Below the pieces are notes generated by a model. That model searched no databases, was not told the origin of the DNA, and was given only the letters and a program-made list of their open reading frames with translations. A stretch of 63,977 bases of DNA, the filler included. It is 6 parts of 6 records of this genome, joined end to end, with 100 filler letters (N's around TTAATTAATTAA, not from the genome) between each part and the next. Parts side by side here need not be neighbours in the genome. Positions count along the whole stretch, not along the records: positions 29,032 to 50,740 come from SRR31156797_8573; 5 more parts are not named here. The stretch is one strand, 5' to 3'. Numbering within the stretch: position 1 is the first letter of the stretch; each line of letters begins with the position of its first letter. Made by a program: the position numbers and the translations under genes. Of this stretch, positions 11,563 to 58,312 are shown piece after piece.

Positions 11563-11719
11563 TTTAAAAAAGGTGCATTAATTGAACAATAACCATTTTT
11601 TTCAGAACGGGGTTTCGGGAGGGGGTGCGGAAAAGGCTGAAAAGAGTTTTAACCAGTTTGTAAATGGAGACAAGCACGATTGTCGACCTTTTTCAATGCT
11701 TAGAATAAAGGGGATAAAA

Positions 11720-13096
11720 ATGGCACGAAAAAAGATTACAAAGATGGCTTACGGCAATGGCACTGAAATGATGTTTGGTACCGCAAAACATCCGGTAACC
11801 ACCAAGAGAGGAATCGAAATCGGCGGGGGGTTCGTGCATCCGGAGGTGGTTCCCCATCCCAGACCGGGAAGTGAAAAGACCATGAAAACCCTGTTAAGGG
11901 AATACGAAAAAGCCAACGGAGATGCCTTGGAAAGGATGGTCATCGTGGGGCATCCCACTTTGCAAATTGAAAATGAGCATGTCTTTCAGATGACTCACAA
12001 CCCCAAATGGGGCGGGGAAATCGCAGCCCAGACCGCCAGGCAGATGGATGACTATCTTGAAAGATACGGGCTCAAAGCCTCTTATCGGTCCACCCCCGCG
12101 GATCTGCGCAAACCGGACATGGTCAATATGCGGGACAGCGACTATACAAGGGAAATCATAGAGAGCTTCGAAGAATGCTCCAAGTACGCGGACGTGGTAT
12201 CCATCGAATCCATGGGCGGCAAAGAGATCTTCGACCATGCCATCATTCGAAACGATATCGGCGGCATCCTCTTCGGCATCGGGGTCTTAGGCGCCATCGA
12301 CATGGAATGGATGTGGGACCAGATCGTTGCCATCTGCAAAAAGAACGACTGCATTCCCGGCGGGGACACCAACTGCTCCGAAGCCAACACGGCCATGTTC
12401 ATGGCGGGCGGCATGACATCCAAGGACGTGCCCCACGTGATCGCCGCGCTGGCCAGGGCCATCGCCGCCTCCAGAACCCTGGTGGCCTATGAGTGCGGCG
12501 CCACCGGTCCCACCAAGGACTGCGCCTACGAGGATCCCATCATCAAGGCCATGTCCGGCGTGCCCATCTCCACCGAGGGAAAGACGAGCGCCTGCGCCCA
12601 TTCCGACCTTGCCGGCAATCTCATCATGGCGGTCTGCGACCTGTGGAGCAACGAGGCGGTCGAATATCACGACATGTTCGGCGCCACCACCACATCGGTT
12701 TTCGCGGAGATCCTGGGCTACGACGTGGCCATGCTCAACACATCCATTAAACTGGGCCACCAGGAACAGATGAAGGAGATCCTGGTCACCTCCGACAAAT
12801 ATCGGGATTCCCACAGCCTGATTGTGGCACCGGACAATGCCTGGGAAATCGGCAACGCCATCGTCAGCAACCGTGCCACAAGCAATTATGCCAGCGCCAG
12901 GGCCGGCGCCATGAAAGCGGGCGAAATCATTCTGGCGGATGCTCAGATGAAATTGACCGCTCTGGAAAAAAGCGCTCTTGAAAAGGCCATGAATGACATG
13001 GAAGCCCTCCCCGATGCTGAAGGGGACTTCATTGACCAGTGCCTGGCCAAGTATAAAGATGTCAAGGGGTTCAACCCCGGGTCTTACGGACTGTAG
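11720..13096 (+). CDS. mtaB: Methanol:corrinoid methyltransferase MtaB
   Basis: KMAY..MMFGTAKHPV, IESMGGKE, GGDTNC, GPTKDCAYE (Zn-ligand motifs), EGKTSACAHSD, DLWSNE, C-terminal FNPGSYGL. Confidence 0.93.
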   Translation: MARKKITKMAYGNGTEMMFGTAKHPVTTKRGIEIGGGFVHPEVVPHPRPGSEKTMKTLLREYEKANGDALERMVIVGHPTLQIENEHVFQMTHNPKWGGEIAAQTARQMDDYLERYGLKASYRSTPADLRKPDMVNMRDSDYTREIIESFEECSKYADVVSIESMGGKEIFDHAIIRNDIGGILFGIGVLGAIDMEWMWDQIVAICKKNDCIPGGDTNCSEANTAMFMAGGMTSKDVPHVIAALARAIAASRTLVAYECGATGPTKDCAYEDPIIKAMSGVPISTEGKTSACAHSDLAGNLIMAVCDLWSNEAVEYHDMFGATTTSVFAEILGYDVAMLNTSIKLGHQEQMKEILVTSDKYRDSHSLIVAPDNAWEIGNAIVSNRATSNYASARAGAMKAGEIILADAQMKLTALEKSALEKAMNDMEALPDAEGDFIDQCLAKYKDVKGFNPGSYGL

Positions 13097-15924: not shown

Positions 15925-16024
15925 NNNNNNNNNNNNNNNNNNNNNNNNNNNNNNNNNNNNNNNNNNNNTTAATTAATTAANNNNNNNNNNNNNNNNNNNN
16001 NNNNNNNNNNNNNNNNNNNNNNNN
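15925..16024. other. Artificial contig spacer
   Basis: N44-TTAATTAATTAA-N44. Confidence 0.99.
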
Positions 16025-21106: not shown

Positions 21107-21206
21107 NNNNNNNNNNNNNNNNNNNNNNNNNNNNNNNNNNNNNNNNNNNNTTAATTAATTAANNNNNNNNNNNNNNNNNNNNNNNNNNNNNNNNNNNNNN
21201 NNNNNN
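21107..21206. other. Artificial contig spacer
   Basis: N run with TTAATTAATTAA. Confidence 0.99.
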
Positions 21207-28931: not shown

Positions 28932-29031
28932 NNNNNNNNNNNNNNNNNNNNNNNNNNNNNNNNNNNNNNNNNNNNTTAATTAATTAANNNNNNNNNNNNN
29001 NNNNNNNNNNNNNNNNNNNNNNNNNNNNNNN
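28932..29031. other. Artificial contig spacer
   Basis: N run with TTAATTAATTAA. Confidence 0.99.
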
Positions 29032-30071
29032 CTCAGCCCTTCCAGCCACGGCATACCGATAGCGTTAATCCCTTCTCCCATTCCCCACCAGTCGGGCAGG
29101 CTCGAACCTGGGGGCGTGTGAAAGAGAACGCCGAACGTCTTCGGGTATGACTGGTACGTATCCAGCGTGCCGTGCATACCGTACCCCAGGCGATTCGGTG
29201 CAATTAAACCCTCGGCTCCCGGCGAGTACGTGCAGGCAAATGGAGCGCCTAAACCAATCCCTAGAGCAACTTTCGTCAGTCTCGATGGATGTCCAATCGG
29301 GCGGTGGTTAAAAAATCCCAGCGCGCTTTTCCAGATGTCCTGTGTGGTACTGCGACCCAGTGGCCAATCGTATTCACTGTCATACCCCCTCAGTCTCATC
29401 TCGGAAATGTACAGGTCCACCCACTCATCTTTCATTCCCTGGGCTTTCTGTGGATCATTGGCGGCGATTTCTTCCATCTCCAGATACGTGAATGATCCAA
29501 AACTGAACATCATGTCTGTGAAGCCGAAGTAGTTGCAATCGTGCTGTTGAAAGTTGCTCGGCGAGTAGTAACCGTACCTGGAATGTTCATGACACCATGT
29601 TGCAGGGGATTCGAGCATCATTGATTGAAGGACTGGCATTTGTTCCCATTCCTTCGATGCTTTTGTCCAGGGTCTCTCTTGCCCGTGGATCATCATGGGC
29701 AATTTCAGCCAGTCGTTATCTACAAACCCCTGGTAATTTCGTCCCACAAATCCGGTTTCATTGAACACCAGCTCGGCGCTCACCATTCGTGTCTGTTCTA
29801 ATGGATAACTGAACTGTGATTCCCCGATTAGTGGTTTCGGAGCAGCTCGGAATTGAATATTCCGAGGAAGCCACAATTGAAGATAGGTCGGCCCCCAATG
29901 GTAAGAGATACCGTAGAACGTCAGGTAATCATGTAATGGGTGGGCAAGGCGGGCCCACATCTGCCTGAATGATCTGTCACCCAGCGGGGGATTCTCTGGA
30001 TCCGGTACGGGGATCGGATTCGGCAGGATGATGTCTGATTGACAGCAACAATTGTGATGGGCGGTCGGCAT
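29032..30071 (-). CDS. Putative tail tip/receptor-binding protein (truncated)
   Basis: Third gene after the tape measure; TAATG coupling; N-terminal MPTAHHNCCC; aromatic-rich. Confidence 0.5.
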
Positions 30072-30532
30072 TATCCACATGCTCCATCGATGCTGTTCGG
30101 GGAAAGCATCATGTATTCCAGCTCGGACACCTTGATCACCGGGATCGGTGGCCGTTTTTCCGGTTCTTCAATCACCCAGGATTTCAAGGCAAACGTCCCA
30201 GTCAGGTTGTCCACGTTGACATTGTTCCCCTCGATGCCGGATCCGGTGTTCACTTCCTCGTAGGGATTCAGGATCACCGGTCCGCCCTCGAAAAAGAAAT
30301 TAACCTCAGCGGTCACGAATTGCCGATTTGCAGGATCCCGCACCAACAGGTGGCCGTAGTACTCCCAACGGTTGGCGCTGATCTCATTGACCGCGGTTGC
30401 CCTGGCCCACTTCACCAGGCTGACCTGGTGTTGTTGCCTGGCTTTCCTGGGACCGGACAGGCGGACCTTTTCCGTGCTTCGCACTGCCTGGCGGACCCGC
30501 TTGATAAAATCAGGATCAAACCGCTGGATCAT
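30071..30532 (-). CDS. Phage tail-region hypothetical protein
   Basis: ATGA-coupled start MIQRFDPDF; the longer ORF-track start overlaps the upstream gene. Confidence 0.65.
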   Translation of the reverse strand: MIQRFDPDFIKRVRQAVRSTEKVRLSGPRKARQQHQVSLVKWARATAVNEISANRWEYYGHLLVRDPANRQFVTAEVNFFFEGGPVILNPYEEVNTGSGIEGNNVNVDNLTGTFALKSWVIEEPEKRPPIPVIKVSELEYMMLSPNSIDGACG

Positions 30533-42954: not shown

Positions 42955-43413
42955 GGGGATGATTCCACATTACGGGCGTGCCCAACACGGTAGCATTGTA
43001 CCCGAAACGACGTCCAGACGATATGGGGTGGATCCTGTGTCCGATAAAATCAGGGAATGCATGAAATCAGCCCGGAAATGACAATTTTCTGTTGATTTTT
43101 ACTATTTTTGTGGCCGCTTTTCGCTCTTGAATTGGTTTAATAAAGGGGCGAAGTAGGGCTTACCGTTCGGGTATGGAAGCATGAAAAAATTGGATCCGAT
43201 GTGATGGCGCCAACCCAAAAGGGTTGGCCGGACGACAGTCCAGCGCCCGCAAGCCGCCAAGGAACTGCCGCCCAGCCGATTATGGAATCCCTGCGCTTAC
43301 AGGTTTCCTGGTCGGTATGGGCGGTCTTTCATGGGCCCTCAAATGGATGTATCGGGTAAAACAAATGCACAGATTAGAGAGTATTGGACTGAGCAGCGAG
43401 GAAATGGAGATTG

Positions 43414-43719
43414 TTATTCAGTTGATTCAGGATCCTGCCGGGCGGCAGATTCTTCGTCGATTAACTGCCGAAGTCGTTGAAGCAAATGCAGCGTATCAGC
43501 GTTCCGCCCAGCACCTATCCACACTTCGTCTAACGTCATTCCCAGGGCCTGGGAAATCTGGATCGCAGTGATGAGATTGGGATTGACTTTCGCGTCAGAC
43601 GATCGGAACCAGTTGGAGATGGTAGAGCGGGGAACACCGGACAATTCGGCCAGTTGTTCCTGGCCAACCTTGCGGAGATTCATCGCGCGTTTGAGATTTG
43701 CCTGAATATTCAACTCCAT
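43414..43719 (-). CDS. XRE-family HTH phage repressor
   Basis: QEQLAELSGVPRSTISNW..PNLITAIQISQALGMTLDEV. Confidence 0.85.
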   Translation of the reverse strand: MELNIQANLKRAMNLRKVGQEQLAELSGVPRSTISNWFRSSDAKVNPNLITAIQISQALGMTLDEVWIGAGRNADTLHLLQRLRQLIDEESAARQDPESTE

Positions 43720-43748
43720 AAGTCACCACACGTCCGCATCTTATGGAG

Positions 43749-43830
43749 TGTGTTATAAAAAACACAGAAAATTCCATATTCGACGCTTGAATTGTGTCAT
43801 TATTGGACTATATTCGCTACACATGACACA
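43749..43830 (+). promoter_or_regulatory. Immunity switch: rightward sigma70 promoter with operator-like repeats
   Basis: TTGAAT (43787-92) N16 TATATT (43809-14); TGTGTTAT (43749), TGTGTCAT (43793), inverted ATGACACA (43823). Confidence 0.55.
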
Positions 43831-44011
43831 GAAACCGAACAATTTTCGAGTTCAGAACGTTCCGGAAGATGACCTGGCAATTGTCATGAAGGCAGCACGT
43901 CGGCGTGGTCACAGGTTCGCTGCGGCATCCGCAGCCCGGTACGCAATCATCGAACTCGCAGATCAACTCCGGCGGGACCAGAAGGAACCGCAAGAGAATG
44001 CCGAGTCGTAG
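43823..44011 (+). CDS. Small Arc/Mnt-like ribbon-helix-helix regulator in the Cro position
   Basis: NFRVQNVPEDDLAIVMKAARRRG..AARYAIIELA strand-helix-helix pattern; divergent from the repressor. Confidence 0.55.
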   Translation: MTQKPNNFRVQNVPEDDLAIVMKAARRRGHRFAAASAARYAIIELADQLRRDQKEPQENAES

Positions 44012-44049
44012 GGTATGATTGGACAGAAGCCACACACTCGACAGTAAGT

Positions 44050-44256
44050 CCGGCTGGCCGGCCGGGCGCCCCTCCGGGGGCTAATCCATTTAACGCTCAA
44101 GTGTAAGCCATGCAGGCATGGCGGCCGACCGCGTCCGTTACGCAGTCGGTCTGCGCTGATTTTCTACGCATACACAGGGCGAAGCATGAACGACCATCAC
44201 AATACACTTGAGCGGGCGGGTCAGACCCGCCGCCCTGGTCCCGGCCGGCCAGCCGG
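44050..44256 (+). ncRNA. Candidate structured RNA (multibranch with pseudoknot)
   Basis: 17-bp and 12-bp perfect nested helices, five internal hairpins, C(UCCG)G tetraloop, 7-bp cross-pairing. Confidence 0.6.
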
Positions 44257-44831
44257 GGCCTCTTTTGCCAGCAACAGCGCTACCGGCGCTTCTTTCCCTC
44301 CGGTCCCGTCGTCGTCCGGATTAGATTCGGCGGCGACGGGATCCTTTCGATCGTGCCCAGGCTGGCCTCGTCATTGTGCATTGTGCATGGACTCGCTTAA
44401 GTGCCACTTCGTGGCCCATACACAAAACTACCTTCCCGGCGGCGGGGTTACCTCCGGCCCTGAACTACAAGCCCCGCCGCCTCCTCCTGAAAAACAACCA
44501 CCAGCGGGAAGTCGTCCGGATGTTCCGGGCGCCGTACTCCAGTGCCCACCACACACAGAGCCCGCTGGTGGTTTCGATTCTTCCGCGGTTGGAAGTCCGG
44601 ACGGTCCGGGCGCCTTTTCCACTGTATCCGATTCCCTTTCTCTGTGGGATCCAACGCCGACCGCGGACAACCATCAATCCCCATCGGTTTACCTCCAGGA
44701 TGGGGTTCGCGTTAAAGGCGGCCAGGGAACCAGCGGAAAAGCCCTGTACGACATGGGCATACTGTGGGTATTCATCCTCCTCCTGGCCGCCTTGCTTGTT
44801 TTCATTGTCACCGTATTCGGGAGAACCCCTA

Positions 44832-45221
44832 ATGCCTGAGATTCCAGGTCACTTGAAAACCTTGTCCTTGGCGAATCTTCGCCTGGTGGACAACGGGAAA
44901 ATCGAGATCACGTTCAATATGCTCCTGCGGACCATCCTGCAGGACATTACCGACCGCCCCAGGGAAAAAGCCAAACGAACCCTGACATTGACGGTCGAAG
45001 CAGTGCCAGTGATTGACCCAGAAAGCGGCGAACTGTTGAACACTGCAATCCAGTTTCTACTGACCCCAAAGGTTCCGAAAAAGAAAACCCAGGACTACCT
45101 GATGGCACCCATGTCGGACAACGTCGTCGCGTTCAGTCCTATGTCCCCAGAGGATCCCCGCCAGGGGGATTTCAGTCACAAGTTTGAACAATCGGCCGAT
45201 GGACCGGTCGAAGAAAGGTAG
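44832..45221 (+). CDS. Phage early protein (YfdP-like partner of the downstream gene)
   Basis: ILQDITDRP..KRTLTLTVEAVP pattern; paired with a 295-aa gene. Confidence 0.55.
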   Translation: MPEIPGHLKTLSLANLRLVDNGKIEITFNMLLRTILQDITDRPREKAKRTLTLTVEAVPVIDPESGELLNTAIQFLLTPKVPKKKTQDYLMAPMSDNVVAFSPMSPEDPRQGDFSHKFEQSADGPVEER

Positions 45222-45227
45222 GCACGA

Positions 45228-46115
45228 ATGGACCTCACAAAAGAGGCAATCAGTCACATCCAGAACACCACCCAGGATCGTTCCGAACTACTGATCTTTC
45301 CGGGTGAACCGAAAAACATGTTGCGAGTTCGTCGGGGAGACACCCTGGAAAAGGTGGAACTGCCCAATCCGCCCGAAGATCACGCCTTGGATCGCCTGGT
45401 GGATCTGGTTTCCCTGGCGAAATCCTGGAACGAACTCGAACGGGTAATCCAGATCTTCTGCAACCCCGACCGGATCGTCATGGTTGGCTACGAAACAAAT
45501 GGCCCCGAAAAGGAAGTCTCCAACACCGATCGTCCACACCTGGCAACCCTGTTGCTTCGACCATCGTCCGAGTTTGTTTTCTTCAGACAACGATTCACGA
45601 AACCCATGATAGCCATGCAGGAACTGCGGGAAGCCATGCAAACCTGCATAGCCAAGTGTCCGGCTGATTCAAAACTGCTGGGGATGATTTCGCATCTGCA
45701 GCGAGTGGAAAACAAGAGCCTCAATGTTCAGGTCGATAACGGCAAGGAATCCCTGGGACTGTCGGTCACCGATGAAGTGCGAAGTGGCCAGGAACAGCCC
45801 GACGAACTCCAGGTCTTCAATGTCCTGCGGTGGGCCAACGCAGATATTCCGATTCGCCATTCGATCGAGTGTCTTCTGTGTGCCGACATTACCGACGGCC
45901 CCCAGTGGTATCTCTATCCCTATGAATGGTCCCTGGAGGCGTTCGAGAAACGCGCGTTGGATCACGTATTCGAACACCTGGTCGGCCAACTTGACGATGT
46001 CGATGACGTGGAACTGTTCCGCGGTCGCTGGGGGGAACAGGCCACCTGGAACATGAACGATTTCGGTTCGGTCGAGAAAATCAACGCCATCACCAACCCC
46101 CGAACCCATGAGTAG
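45228..46115 (+). CDS. Phage early protein (YfdQ/DUF2303-like by position and size)
   Basis: MDLTKEAISHIQ start with AGGTAGG RBS; follows the YfdP-like gene. Confidence 0.5.
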   Translation: MDLTKEAISHIQNTTQDRSELLIFPGEPKNMLRVRRGDTLEKVELPNPPEDHALDRLVDLVSLAKSWNELERVIQIFCNPDRIVMVGYETNGPEKEVSNTDRPHLATLLLRPSSEFVFFRQRFTKPMIAMQELREAMQTCIAKCPADSKLLGMISHLQRVENKSLNVQVDNGKESLGLSVTDEVRSGQEQPDELQVFNVLRWANADIPIRHSIECLLCADITDGPQWYLYPYEWSLEAFEKRALDHVFEHLVGQLDDVDDVELFRGRWGEQATWNMNDFGSVEKINAITNPRTHE

Positions 46116-46774: not shown

Positions 46775-47827
46775 ATGGCTGGAGACTGGTTCCCAGTGCG
46801 GACGGATCTGCTCTCGGATCCGGCGGTCTTTTCTATTGCCGGAATGACGGGACTGTCCAATTTCGACGTCGTCGGTCGCCTAGTGGCGATCTGGGCCTGG
46901 GCGTCGCATCACACCACGGACGGCGTGATCAACGTCCCCCCCGCTTGCCTGGAACGGATTGCGGATCACCCAGGCTTTGCAGACGCCATGTGCCAGGTGC
47001 AATGGCTGGAGACAGAGGACCAGGCGATCCGGTTCCCGAAGTGGAATGACTGGAACAGCCGGTCGGCCAAGAAACGGCTTATGAACTCGAAGCGAAAAGC
47101 GACCAGCCGCGCATCGGACGAGACAGATGGAGGACAAAAGCGCGACACAAGCGCGACCGATGTCCCCGAACCGTCACGCAGTGCGGGGGAAAAAAGCGTC
47201 GTCACAGAACACATAACACATTTACAGAACACACCAACCACCACCGTGTCTATAGATCCTAGTGTATCTGGGGGTGGGGGTGGTGAAGTTTCACAGGAAA
47301 CAAAACCGGATCCGGTCCGGTCGGCCCTGCAGGACGCGGGTATCGGATCCGCGTCCGTCGTGAACCGACTTTGTGCAGACTCTGCGATCACCGCGCCAAT
47401 CGTGAAGCAGGTGGCCGACCAGGTCCGGGCCGGCGGCGGTGGCCCCGGTGCCATCGTTAAAGCCCTGGAGAATCCAGAATCCCGTCAGACCTACCTGAAC
47501 ACCGCAGAGCGGGCCGGGCAACCCGACCGGGACAAACAGGCCCGCGACGCGGCCAGTGCTGCCTATCGGGCTGAGATGGATTCCTGGAAGAAAAACAAAG
47601 CAGCTGACATGGATCGGTTTCGCAAGCGGTGGGAAACCGTTCGACCGGAAGCGCGGGACCTGGTCCTGGCGGCCGCTGAAATCACATACACCCGAACCGC
47701 TCCGCCCAGCTTTCCCTGGCGGCCGGTGGATCCCGACGCGGATCCGGCAACCTGGCCGGCCTTCAGCCGGACGGCGATACGCGATGTCCTGGACCGGCGT
47801 GACCAGGCAAAGGAACCCGAACCATGA
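46775..47827 (+). CDS. Phage replication initiator/replisome organiser
   Basis: MAGDWFPVRTDLLSDPAV..VVGRLVAIWAWA..GFADAM..WL..FPKW, then a low-complexity linker. Confidence 0.75.
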   Translation: MAGDWFPVRTDLLSDPAVFSIAGMTGLSNFDVVGRLVAIWAWASHHTTDGVINVPPACLERIADHPGFADAMCQVQWLETEDQAIRFPKWNDWNSRSAKKRLMNSKRKATSRASDETDGGQKRDTSATDVPEPSRSAGEKSVVTEHITHLQNTPTTTVSIDPSVSGGGGGEVSQETKPDPVRSALQDAGIGSASVVNRLCADSAITAPIVKQVADQVRAGGGGPGAIVKALENPESRQTYLNTAERAGQPDRDKQARDAASAAYRAEMDSWKKNKAADMDRFRKRWETVRPEARDLVLAAAEITYTRTAPPSFPWRPVDPDADPATWPAFSRTAIRDVLDRRDQAKEPEP

Positions 47828-49076: not shown

Positions 49077-50210
49077 ATGAAGCCGAAAGTATGGATTGAA
49101 AAGTCCGGGGTGTCCAGGGGGTCACCCTGGCGGGTCCGATGGGTGGACACCAGGGGCCGGCGGTCTCGGATGGCGAAGACGAAAACCGAGGCGGAACAGA
49201 TCAAGGTCCAGGTGTATCGAAGCCTGCAGGCCGGCCAGTATGGCCAGCCGACCGATGGACCCTGGAACGATTTCGTGAGAGACGATTTAAAGGCCGCTGA
49301 GACCTCCATGTCCAAGGGCGGGCGGAAACGCCTGGAGACCTCGTTCAAAGCGGTGACGCGGATTCTCAAGCCCAGGCGGCTCTCTGAGGTGGCGACGTTC
49401 GGCGCGCTCGAGCGGTTCGTGGAAAAACGGTTCCAGGAACCGGGCAAGCGAGGCAAGAACATTCAGCCGGAAACGGTGGTGGCCGATCTGCAGTATCTCC
49501 GCGGGGCGTTGAATCGTGCCAGGCGGCGGCAGTTGATCGGCCAGGTCCCGGAGATGCCGAAGATTTCCACCTGGGAAAAAGTGCCGCAGATTCTTTCGTC
49601 CACGCGGATCAGCCGGTTGATGAACGCGGCGACGCATGATCGGGAGCGTGCCCTGGTGTGGCTCTTATTGACCACCGGCCGGCGACTCCAGGATATTCTC
49701 CATCTGCAGTGGCAATGGGTGGACCTGGAGGGTGGGTTGATCCGCATCGTCCAGGACGAGGAGTACCAGACCAAGGGCCGGCGGAACGACTACGCCCACC
49801 TGGATCCGTACGGAAAAGAATTGTTGGAGCTGTTGAACGAAAACACCCGAAAGAAAGTAGTCGGCGGGAAAGCCGTCCCTTGCTGTCCCTGGGTGTTCAC
49901 GACCCTGGACGGAAAGCGGCGGTGGACCAACAACGTGAGGCGGACCTGGCACAAGCTCTGCAAGGCGGCGGAGTTTCCCGAACCCTACCCCCGGATCCAC
50001 GATTGCAAACATACGTTTGTCAGTGGTCTGGTGGCGGCCGGGATCCAGCAGTCGATCATCACGGCGGTGGCCGCGCACCGCAGCTCGGCGACAACGCAGA
50101 AGTATTATTCGTGGGTCGTGGACGATTCACGGCGACAGGCCGTCCAGGCGTTGCCCTGGGTGATGAATGACCAATCAGAGGAACAGAGCCGAAAGGCAGA
50201 AGGAGCGTAG
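49077..50210 (+). CDS. int: Tyrosine recombinase/integrase
   Basis: N-terminal arm-binding WRVRW; LLTTGRR (R), TKG (K), HDCKH (HxxK), AHRS (H), TQKYY (Y). Confidence 0.88.
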   Translation: MKPKVWIEKSGVSRGSPWRVRWVDTRGRRSRMAKTKTEAEQIKVQVYRSLQAGQYGQPTDGPWNDFVRDDLKAAETSMSKGGRKRLETSFKAVTRILKPRRLSEVATFGALERFVEKRFQEPGKRGKNIQPETVVADLQYLRGALNRARRRQLIGQVPEMPKISTWEKVPQILSSTRISRLMNAATHDRERALVWLLLTTGRRLQDILHLQWQWVDLEGGLIRIVQDEEYQTKGRRNDYAHLDPYGKELLELLNENTRKKVVGGKAVPCCPWVFTTLDGKRRWTNNVRRTWHKLCKAAEFPEPYPRIHDCKHTFVSGLVAAGIQQSIITAVAAHRSSATTQKYYSWVVDDSRRQAVQALPWVMNDQSEEQSRKAEGA

Positions 50211-50740: not shown

Positions 50741-50840
50741 NNNNNNNNNNNNNNNNNNNNNNNNNNNNNNNNNNNNNNNNNNNNTTAATTAATTAANNNN
50801 NNNNNNNNNNNNNNNNNNNNNNNNNNNNNNNNNNNNNNNN
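50741..50840. other. Artificial contig spacer
   Basis: N run with TTAATTAATTAA. Confidence 0.99.
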
Positions 50841-58212: not shown

Positions 58213-58312
58213 NNNNNNNNNNNNNNNNNNNNNNNNNNNNNNNNNNNNNNNNNNNNTTAATTAATTAANNNNNNNNNNNNNNNNNNNNNNNNNNNNNNNN
58301 NNNNNNNNNNNN
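58213..58312. other. Artificial contig spacer
   Basis: N run with TTAATTAATTAA. Confidence 0.99.

Follow-up and report, generated by a model that had tools for sequence, protein, structure and literature searches.

A 207-nt element at positions 44050-44256 on the plus strand of the DNA analyzed here (63,977 nucleotides in all, referred to below as the window) lies in the rightward early region of a phage and carries a structure that is both real and exceptional. In the modeled folds its RNA is predicted to adopt either of two competing conformations, one closed by a long-range helix of 17 bp and the other ending in a terminator-like hairpin, an anatomy that amounts to an attenuator-like layout. 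We therefore give a probability of roughly 40% to the reading that the element serves as a cis-acting terminator/antiterminator leader of the rightward early transcript. An earlier, sequence-only reading of the same DNA had presented it as a candidate pseudoknotted RNA of no known family that works in immunity, antitermination or as a translational switch. The structure is indeed unmatched in Rfam and that interpretation is partly supported; in particular, a role in termination gains some support from the ability of the 3' arm to adopt a terminator-like fold instead, an option that the earlier reading had not noted.

Results

The 207-nt element can fold into an exceptionally stable multi-branch structure

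The element starts 38 nt past the stop codon of the first early open reading frame (ORF) and has the same orientation as the early genes. It is bounded by two arms, 44050-44066 and 44240-44256, that are complementary at 17 of 17 positions and thus can form the closing helix, and a second pair of arms, 44094-44105 and 44203-44214, complementary at 12 of 12 positions, makes up the inner helix. Five hairpins complete the structure. The one at 44068-44081 has 5 bp and a UCCG loop closed by C-G; that at 44107-44122 has 6 bp and the loop CAGG; the hairpin at 44123-44151 (7+4 bp) includes one G·U pair (44124/44150) and one C/A mismatch (44130/44144), that is, one strand-specific wobble per strand; the hairpin at 44152-44170 is weak, with 4 bp; and the last, at 44215-44231, has 7 bp and the loop CAG. 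Both long helices and all five hairpins, each of which had been proposed by the sequence-only reading, are present in the minimum free energy (MFE) and centroid folds of 44050-44256.

The plus-strand RNA folds at -121.6 kcal/mol, compared with -83.6 ± 4.6 kcal/mol for dinucleotide shuffles, none of which (0 of 200) was as good (z -8.3), so that the comparison with shuffles on which the proposal could have failed was passed by a wide margin. When 1595 segments of 207 nt from across the window were folded and their energies regressed on GC content, the element lay 4.9 standard deviations below the regression, while the most extreme plus-strand segment of the scan lay at -3.3 standard deviations. 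Matches to the closing 17-mer, with up to 3 mismatches allowed, occur only at the two arms (4 matches versus 0.24 expected).

The 3' arm can alternatively form a terminator-like hairpin

The 3' arm of the closing helix can also pair locally. A hairpin of 9 bp with a loop of 6 nt (hairpin T; 44237-44267 together with the UCUUUUG that follows it) has a predicted energy of -19.8 kcal/mol, and a consensus scan flags 44237-44260 plus TCTTTTG as terminator-like on the strength of 9 pairs, 8 of them G-C, and the loop of 6. The GC-rich hairpin abutting a U-rich run that defines an intrinsic terminator is thus present at 44237-44260. Between the end of the closing helix (44256) and the U-run there are four bases; hairpin T, which ends at 44260, is directly adjacent to that run. 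The two helices, 44050-44066/44240-44256 and 44237-44260, are mutually exclusive and share the terminator strand, as expected of an attenuator; the conserved, described sensor domain that one would look for in an attenuator or riboswitch was not found with Rfam 15 at gathering score.

The 5' arm has an alternative of its own, an 8-bp hairpin (hairpin A; 44048-44067, -14.6 kcal/mol) with the motif AAGUCCGG...CCGGGCGCC. If the region 44040-44270 is folded freely, the long-range helix is obtained at -126.0 kcal/mol; if the terminator is enforced, the energy is -114.5 kcal/mol and hairpin A forms by itself at the 5' end. When ever longer prefixes are folded, hairpin A appears before any other structure. 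Two features of the element exist on the plus strand only, namely the UCCG tetraloop closed by C-G and the U-run after hairpin T.

A model for the early leader

In the model that we propose, the element would be a structured cis part of the early transcript that sets the level of read-through from the first gene into the replication genes. The 3' arm could pair with the distant 5' arm to give the 17-bp closing helix, or alternatively fold locally into the 9-bp hairpin against UCUUUUG and so create an intrinsic terminator. If the 5' arm were sequestered in hairpin A, the terminator would form and transcription would stop after the first gene; if the 5' arm were free, the long helix would form instead and the polymerase would proceed through the stem-loops that follow. 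The motif of hairpin A, which recurs at 44514 and 44595, would then be a possible binding site for a phage factor. Transcription from a promoter-like site at 43787-43814, its termination at 44261-44267, the switching between folds and the participation of any factor are all what we infer from the letters of the DNA.

Candidate tertiary contacts

The sequence-only reading had also proposed that CAGGGCG (44175-44181) pairs with CGCCCUG (44231-44237) across the inner helix to form a pseudoknot. The 7-nt complement exists and both segments are unpaired in the predicted fold; this is nonetheless one of the weaker parts of the proposal, a complement of at least 7 nt between unpaired segments being met in 1.06% of 5000 shuffles (P = 0.0106, in a post hoc test). 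GGGCG and CGCCC words are frequent within the element. We regard the pseudoknot pairing as suggestive. A second contact had been proposed between CUAAUCC (44081-44087) and GGAUUAG (44318-44324), the latter in the loop of the next hairpin. This 7-nt match exists as well, but such a match is met in 5.2% of 2000 shuffles, which is about chance (the 823 nt that begin after the first gene hold 74 complementary 7-mer pairs), and GGAUUAG lies in the stem, not the loop, of the MFE structure.

The element is followed by further stem-loops with a recurring hairpin motif

These 823 nt (44012-44834) fold at -367.2 kcal/mol (z -7.3 against 20 shuffles), and the element is the first of six large stem-loop domains within them: 44050-44256, 44302-44343, 44438-44481, 44496-44573, 44582-44667 and 44715-44793, all on the plus strand. 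The second is hairpin D, a bulged stem of 19 bp (-32.1 kcal/mol) that contains GUCCGGAU, and the third has a GC stem of 10-12 bp. The fourth domain (unit B) consists of a 13-bp closing stem around GUCCGGA-UGU-UCCGGGC+GCC, and the fifth (unit C) of an 11-bp closing stem, with one U·G pair, around GUCCGGA-CGG-UCCGGGC+GCC, after which comes UUUU. The last has a stem of 12-13 bp followed by GCUUGUUUUC.

The inner hairpins of units B and C, which start at 44514 and 44595, are closely alike, whereas the closing-stem sequences of the larger stem-loops in which they lie are unrelated. Hairpin A is a larger-looped version of the same motif, and all three hairpins (A, B and C) have a U·G pair at the identical stem position, a feature of the plus strand only. 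In the DNA, the motif of B and C appears as 20-nt direct repeats with internal dyad symmetry, 81 bp apart and 90% identical, of the form GTCCGGA-N3-TCCGGGCGCC at 44514 and 44595, with degenerate copies at 44048 and 44314. The word CCGGGCGCC is found three times in the window, always in this region and on the plus strand (the third copy is at 44062, and a related GTCCGGA stands at 44314), versus 0.77 expected; a count of three was reached in 3 of 100 shuffles. The shorter word CCGG is not enriched beyond the Markov expectation (16 versus 13.9), and a tandem repeat scan found only a 7-nt repeat in 2.4 copies at 44372-44388. Automatic alignment of units A-D was poor, and the comparison of the motif is a reading of the sequences together with their folds.

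RNA or DNA

Several observations weigh against an RNA-level leader. The minus strand of the 207 nt folds at -123.1 kcal/mol with z -6.7, compared with z -8.3 for the plus strand, and folding with DNA energy parameters gives z -7.9; over the 823 nt the minus strand even does marginally better (-384.4 kcal/mol, z -7.65, versus -367.2 kcal/mol, z -7.3). G·U pairs make up 21 of the 244 pairs predicted for the plus strand and 30 of the 284 for the minus strand, so that wobble pairing shows no plus-strand preference, and half of the predicted pairs (122) are common to both strands. The 17-bp and 12-bp helices are purely Watson-Crick, just as expected of inverted repeats at the DNA level. The U·G pair shared by hairpins A, B and C may be simply inherited, given that the three are paralogues in one sequence, and the stem of unit B is followed by a run of five T's on the minus strand and is terminator-like there. 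Terminator-like sites are not enriched in the 2-kb region (4 versus 2.3 ± 2.0 expected), and the helices that switch in known riboswitches are far less stable than one of 17 bp. Among the products of the neighboring genes we recognized neither an antiterminator nor an RNA-binding protein, and no homologues were found in which covariation could be seen. The earlier contention that the element acts as RNA, on the given strand, is not supported by these folds, in which the minus strand and the DNA parameters do equally well.

Weighing the alternatives

The main rival to a terminator/antiterminator leader is that the gene-poor stretch of about 820 bp works as DNA, as a replication origin or an array of protein-binding sites in which the repeats are iterons and the large perfect inverted repeats are structural or cruciform elements. 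The equal folding of both strands and with DNA parameters speaks for this explanation, as do inverted repeats that are perfect and lack wobble, the 20-nt direct repeats with internal dyad symmetry, and the position of a long non-coding stretch in a tightly packed phage some 2 kb upstream of a replication-initiator gene; a precedent has moreover been published for the PLE satellite (PMC7145576). An iteron array, however, would be a meager one, with only two good copies 81 bp apart and one or two degenerate ones at irregular distances. The AT-rich unwinding region expected next to an iteron origin is missing (the lowest GC content of any 60 nt in 44012-44831 is 0.467), nothing connects the initiator to the repeats, and the 7-nt crossing complement and the one-strand U-runs would be left without a role. 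We consider a function at the level of DNA rather unlikely, and the other rivals less likely still. One of these is that the unit is a selfish or accidental palindromic insertion, resembling a miniature inverted-repeat transposable element or an inverton, or a set of young functionless GC-rich palindromes that cause incidental termination at most. It is in fact a 207-bp unit bounded by perfect 17-bp inverted repeats (17/17), as terminal repeats would be, and long GC-rich palindromes occur elsewhere, for example one of 143 nt with z -10.8 in a bacterial genome. We nevertheless hold this to be unlikely, since there is no second copy in the window, arms with a gap of 160-185 nt went unmatched in viral contigs, the borders show no target-site duplication, the interior has no promoter-like site, and five separate hairpins with a second perfect helix amount to a more elaborate architecture than that of a plain foldback. 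The assembled contigs, which are blind to a minority orientation, show no joint at the 17-bp repeats.

About as doubtful, by our estimate, is a stable and possibly processed non-coding RNA with its own function, either the element itself as an immunity RNA in the manner of P4 CI or P1 C4, or the element as the first domain of a large ornate RNA covering 44012-44831 in which the pseudoknot would belong to a tertiary fold. The compact multi-branch architecture with its closing helix, the pseudoknot complement that is rarer than chance (P about 0.01), the z of -7.3 over 823 nt in six domains and the failure of any known family to match all speak for such an RNA, and large structured phage RNAs do occur, GOLLD and ROOL being examples (10.1101/2024.12.08.627333). 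On the other hand, no conservation of any kind was found, the inter-domain contact 44081-44087/44318-44324 is at chance level, and the helices are perfect and GC-rich, without the pattern of wobbles and mismatches usual in old RNA families. More speculative, and in our view quite improbable, is that the 207-nt domain, possibly with the five following stem-loops (44012-44831), represents the first example of an undescribed class of large phage leader RNA. Such an RNA would have a pseudoknotted multi-branch fold in which a phage factor sets the choice between outer helix and terminator; the factor would recognize hairpins of the type GUCCGGN-loop-N'CCGGGCGCC, and the RNA would decide on entry into replication after loss of the repressor. 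The least credible alternative, to which we give very little weight, is that the ORF at 44186-44839 (217 amino acids) is a real gene with hairpins inside. This frame does run for 217 codons without a stop and reaches 8 nt into the next gene, and its last 46 codons, the sole positive part, have a codon score of +0.20. Yet all six frames have negative codon scores over 44186-44700, where the GC content by codon position is flat (.65/.59/.58, versus about.6/.4/.68 in 14 phage genes); moreover, other frames on both strands are also open for 70-150 codons across the gap, so that the stretch is simply poor in stop codons. The predicted product is rich in Pro, Gly and Ser and has a C-terminal hydrophobic helix; it found no relatives among 2018 candidates scored, which is weak evidence given that for the real gene of 295 amino acids in the neighborhood none were found either. 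With an ORF that shows neither coding signal nor relatives, the idea that the structure masks the start codon at ATG 44186, as a translational switch, is not supported.

Searches for known families and homologues

Rfam 15 gave no match at gathering score in the whole window, in agreement with the earlier statement that the fold matches no known family. The six rows between 43700 and 45000 have E values of 0.17-9.4 and are far below gathering, the best of them scoring 22.2 bits where gathering would take 41.2. No tRNA or tmRNA was found. A blastn search with 43400-45300 against 50,697 phage records returned no match, a tblastn search with the downstream protein of about 129-131 amino acids found nothing in phage records, and the same protein led to no confirmed homologous locus in genome, viral or metagenome contigs. 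For the protein of 295 amino acids no relative was found among 5.8 billion proteins, and a BLAST search for the 820 nt in two genomes was likewise without result.

Searches for the structure itself gave a similar picture. Exact patterns built from the inner-helix pair and the closing-arm pair each had 0 matches in viral contigs, and the double B-C motif had 0 in metagenome contigs. The single motif was found in viral contigs as 7 single matches, 5 of which lie inside the longest open frame; the site in L084 reads as a small terminator hairpin. We also built a covariance model from the single sequence and ran it over 11 sources (the window and 10 loci) and in 307 genome searches (genomes G404 and G408 fall in two of these). 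Besides the element itself, nothing in the window and the 10 loci exceeded 15.5 bits. The genomes yielded 0 of 5, and 0 of 151 in the phylum of a Thermoguttaceae metagenome-assembled genome (MAG). Two of 151 genomes in the class of Desulfospira had matches, of 25.7 and 24.3 bits; these were rejected, as only the outer GC helix and one hairpin were aligned and the inner domain was deleted. Of the two corresponding candidate loci, if taken by their own folds, L098 reaches only z -1.3 and L099 is a plain long palindrome.

The latter (L099 1501-1641, corresponding to G059:C67:51316-51456) is a near-perfect GC-rich palindrome of 143 nt with -97.1 kcal/mol and z -10.8, located in a genome of the class of Desulfospira, and its interior is unrelated to the 207-nt element. 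Separately, a contig of the Thermoguttaceae MAG carries, inside an ORF of 277 amino acids, a 32-nt inverted repeat that is 97% complementary with its arms 110 nt apart (L082 838-1011); this repeat may be an assembly artefact or a real element.

The phage and its early region

At least six contigs have been concatenated to give the window, separated by five spacers of the form N44-TTAATTAATTAA-N44 (15925-16024, 21107-21206, 28932-29031, 50741-50840 and 58213-58312), and the GC content of its pieces differs strongly, from 0.36 to 0.61. One of these contigs, 29032-50740, makes up the phage-like part. Since the contigs are joined by spacers only, the neighboring "host" genes are not linked to the phage contig, ORFs that cross a spacer, such as 28980-30080, are artefacts, and, with spacers and no host DNA on its flanks, to speak of a "prophage" would go further than the sequence allows. 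The one sequencing run with this DNA has a single contig of 24,932 nt, at a depth of 14.4, that covers the region. Its ends share an overlap of 30 nt (43827-43856), which makes the phage a circular assembly of about 24.9 kb; some 3.2 kb of the circle are absent from the phage contig of the window. The run contig and the window differ at a single position, 43826 (A>T), with which codon 2 of the first early ORF begins. An independent assembly of that run has identical letters over 43827-45300 (0 other letters, 0 gaps), which makes it unlikely that the sequence of the element is one assembler's error; coming from the same sample, it is not independent biological support.

The terminase, portal and head-tail genes are on the minus strand of the phage contig, which also encodes an HNH endonuclease and a tyrosine integrase (49077-50210). 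A CI-type repressor of 101 amino acids (43414-43719, minus strand; Pfam HTH_3 3.3e-11 and Phage_CI_repr 1.8e-05; PHROG transcriptional repressors) is divergent from the early genes. The promoter-like site TTGAAT-16-TATATT at 43787-43814 on the plus strand, the sole one found in 43300-45300, is a consensus match only, with 1 found versus 0.9 expected. It precedes a small first early ORF of 62 amino acids in the cro position (43823-44011, plus strand), for which no family was found, and which has coding-like GC contents of.68/.41/.57 by codon position and a positive codon score in frame. The ATG of this ORF (43823) follows the -10-like hexamer at a distance of 8 nt, from which it appears that the cro-position gene may be translated from a leaderless mRNA. 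A perfect 10-bp inverted repeat, ACTCCATAAG / CTTATGGAGT, with a 17-nt spacer (43713-43749) overlaps the start of the repressor gene and is an operator candidate.

Between the first early gene and the next there are about 740-820 nt without a convincing gene, which is unusual for a phage of this size. On the plus strand of the phage contig, words with TAA or TAG (TAAG, CTAA) are very rare except in this gap; TAAG occurs 3 times in the 820-nt gap versus 0.2 expected from the rest of the contig. Near the end of the gap, a possible hydrophobic mini-ORF of 28 amino acids (44753-44839, plus strand; MGILWVF..., MGILWVFILLLAALLVFIVTVFGRTPNA) sits on the 3' arm of the stem-loop at 44715-44793 and overlaps the start of the following gene by 8 nt; it falls within the positively scoring last 46 codons of the long ORF. 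That gene, the first clear one after the gap (44832-45221, plus strand, 129 amino acids), belongs to a widespread family without known function, and downstream of it come the gene of 295 amino acids, two small genes and a replication initiator of 350 amino acids (46775-47827; phrog_2509, 4e-36). The HTH_3 repressor, the promoter-like site divergent from it and the small first gene stand before the element, and the replication initiator after it; we recognize in this the rightward early region of a temperate phage, of which "early leader of a temperate phage" is a fair description.

By sequence comparison the phage itself is an orphan: relatives of its terminase are 33-39% identical, with at most 39% to any deposited phage. 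The family of the 129-amino-acid protein counts 587 representatives at E <= 0.001 and was found in 4 of 401 genomes in the phylum of the Thermoguttaceae MAG and in 0 of 401 in the class of Desulfospira, a distribution that offers a faint hint as to the host lineage. At the five loci compared (L081, L082, L094, L096 and L097), and as far as ORF maps allow a judgment in such GC-rich DNA, there is no comparable long gap before the homologue of the 129-amino-acid gene. An IMG/VR contig and three genomes from the same phylum as the Thermoguttaceae MAG have this gene paired with a following one of about 250-295 amino acids, and in that MAG itself their order is reversed; the larger protein of the pair shows weak pairwise similarity (E 2e-07 and 2e-04), and neither protein is of known function. 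Elsewhere in the window, 11582-13096 encodes a bacterial MtaB-type methanol:corrinoid methyltransferase (Pfam 1e-202), followed by a RACo-type activase; the MtaB-type protein is 85-90% identical to proteins of Desulfobacterales MAGs. That contig looks Desulfobacterales-like but is not physically linked to the phage.

Discussion

Early leaders of phages are known to carry intrinsic terminators and attenuators, of the lambda tR1 type or with expression platforms in the style of riboswitches. The element resembles the tR1-type terminators in that it comes directly after the first early gene and in that a GC-rich hairpin abuts a U-run, and it resembles terminator/antiterminator attenuators in that a distant upstream segment can capture the terminator strand, which leaves two exclusive folds. 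It departs from known antiterminator helices in its competing helix, which with 17 bp is larger and more stable and encloses a four-hairpin domain of 173 nt, and from riboswitch-style leaders in matching no aptamer or leader in Rfam. The put RNAs of HK022 and other cis-acting RNAs of processive antitermination are likewise structured early-leader RNAs upstream of terminators with repeated stem-loop units, although here the units are of unequal size. With the CI RNA of P4 and the C4 RNAs of P1 and P7 the element has in common its place in the early-operon leader of a temperate element and short complements within the transcript; it differs from them in having complementary 7-mers at or near chance and no Rfam match at gathering score, in a database that presumably holds a C4 model.

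Two further comparisons bear on the alternatives. The non-coding region of PLE with its iteron-type origin (PMC7145576) likewise combines a long stretch of non-coding DNA close to replication genes with semi-palindromic direct repeats and inverted repeats, while the present stretch has two close repeat copies only and no AT-rich segment. GOLLD and ROOL (10.1101/2024.12.08.627333) similarly are multi-domain structures, hundreds of nucleotides long, in phage genomes; the element has no match to either, be it at gathering score or among the six weak Rfam rows.

Taken together, a single orphan sequence is a lead rather than a discovery, and it carries a caution of more general use, namely that with nested perfect inverted repeats an RNA of either strand, and the DNA too, will fold equally well. 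If the DNA reading were true, the element would mark the origin of a small temperate phage of 24.9 kb. If, on the other hand, the terminator/antiterminator reading were true, the element would be an unusually large and stable device of this kind, placed in the region that controls the choice between lysis and lysogeny, and in a phage lineage without studied relatives it would provide a handle on the timing of early transcription.

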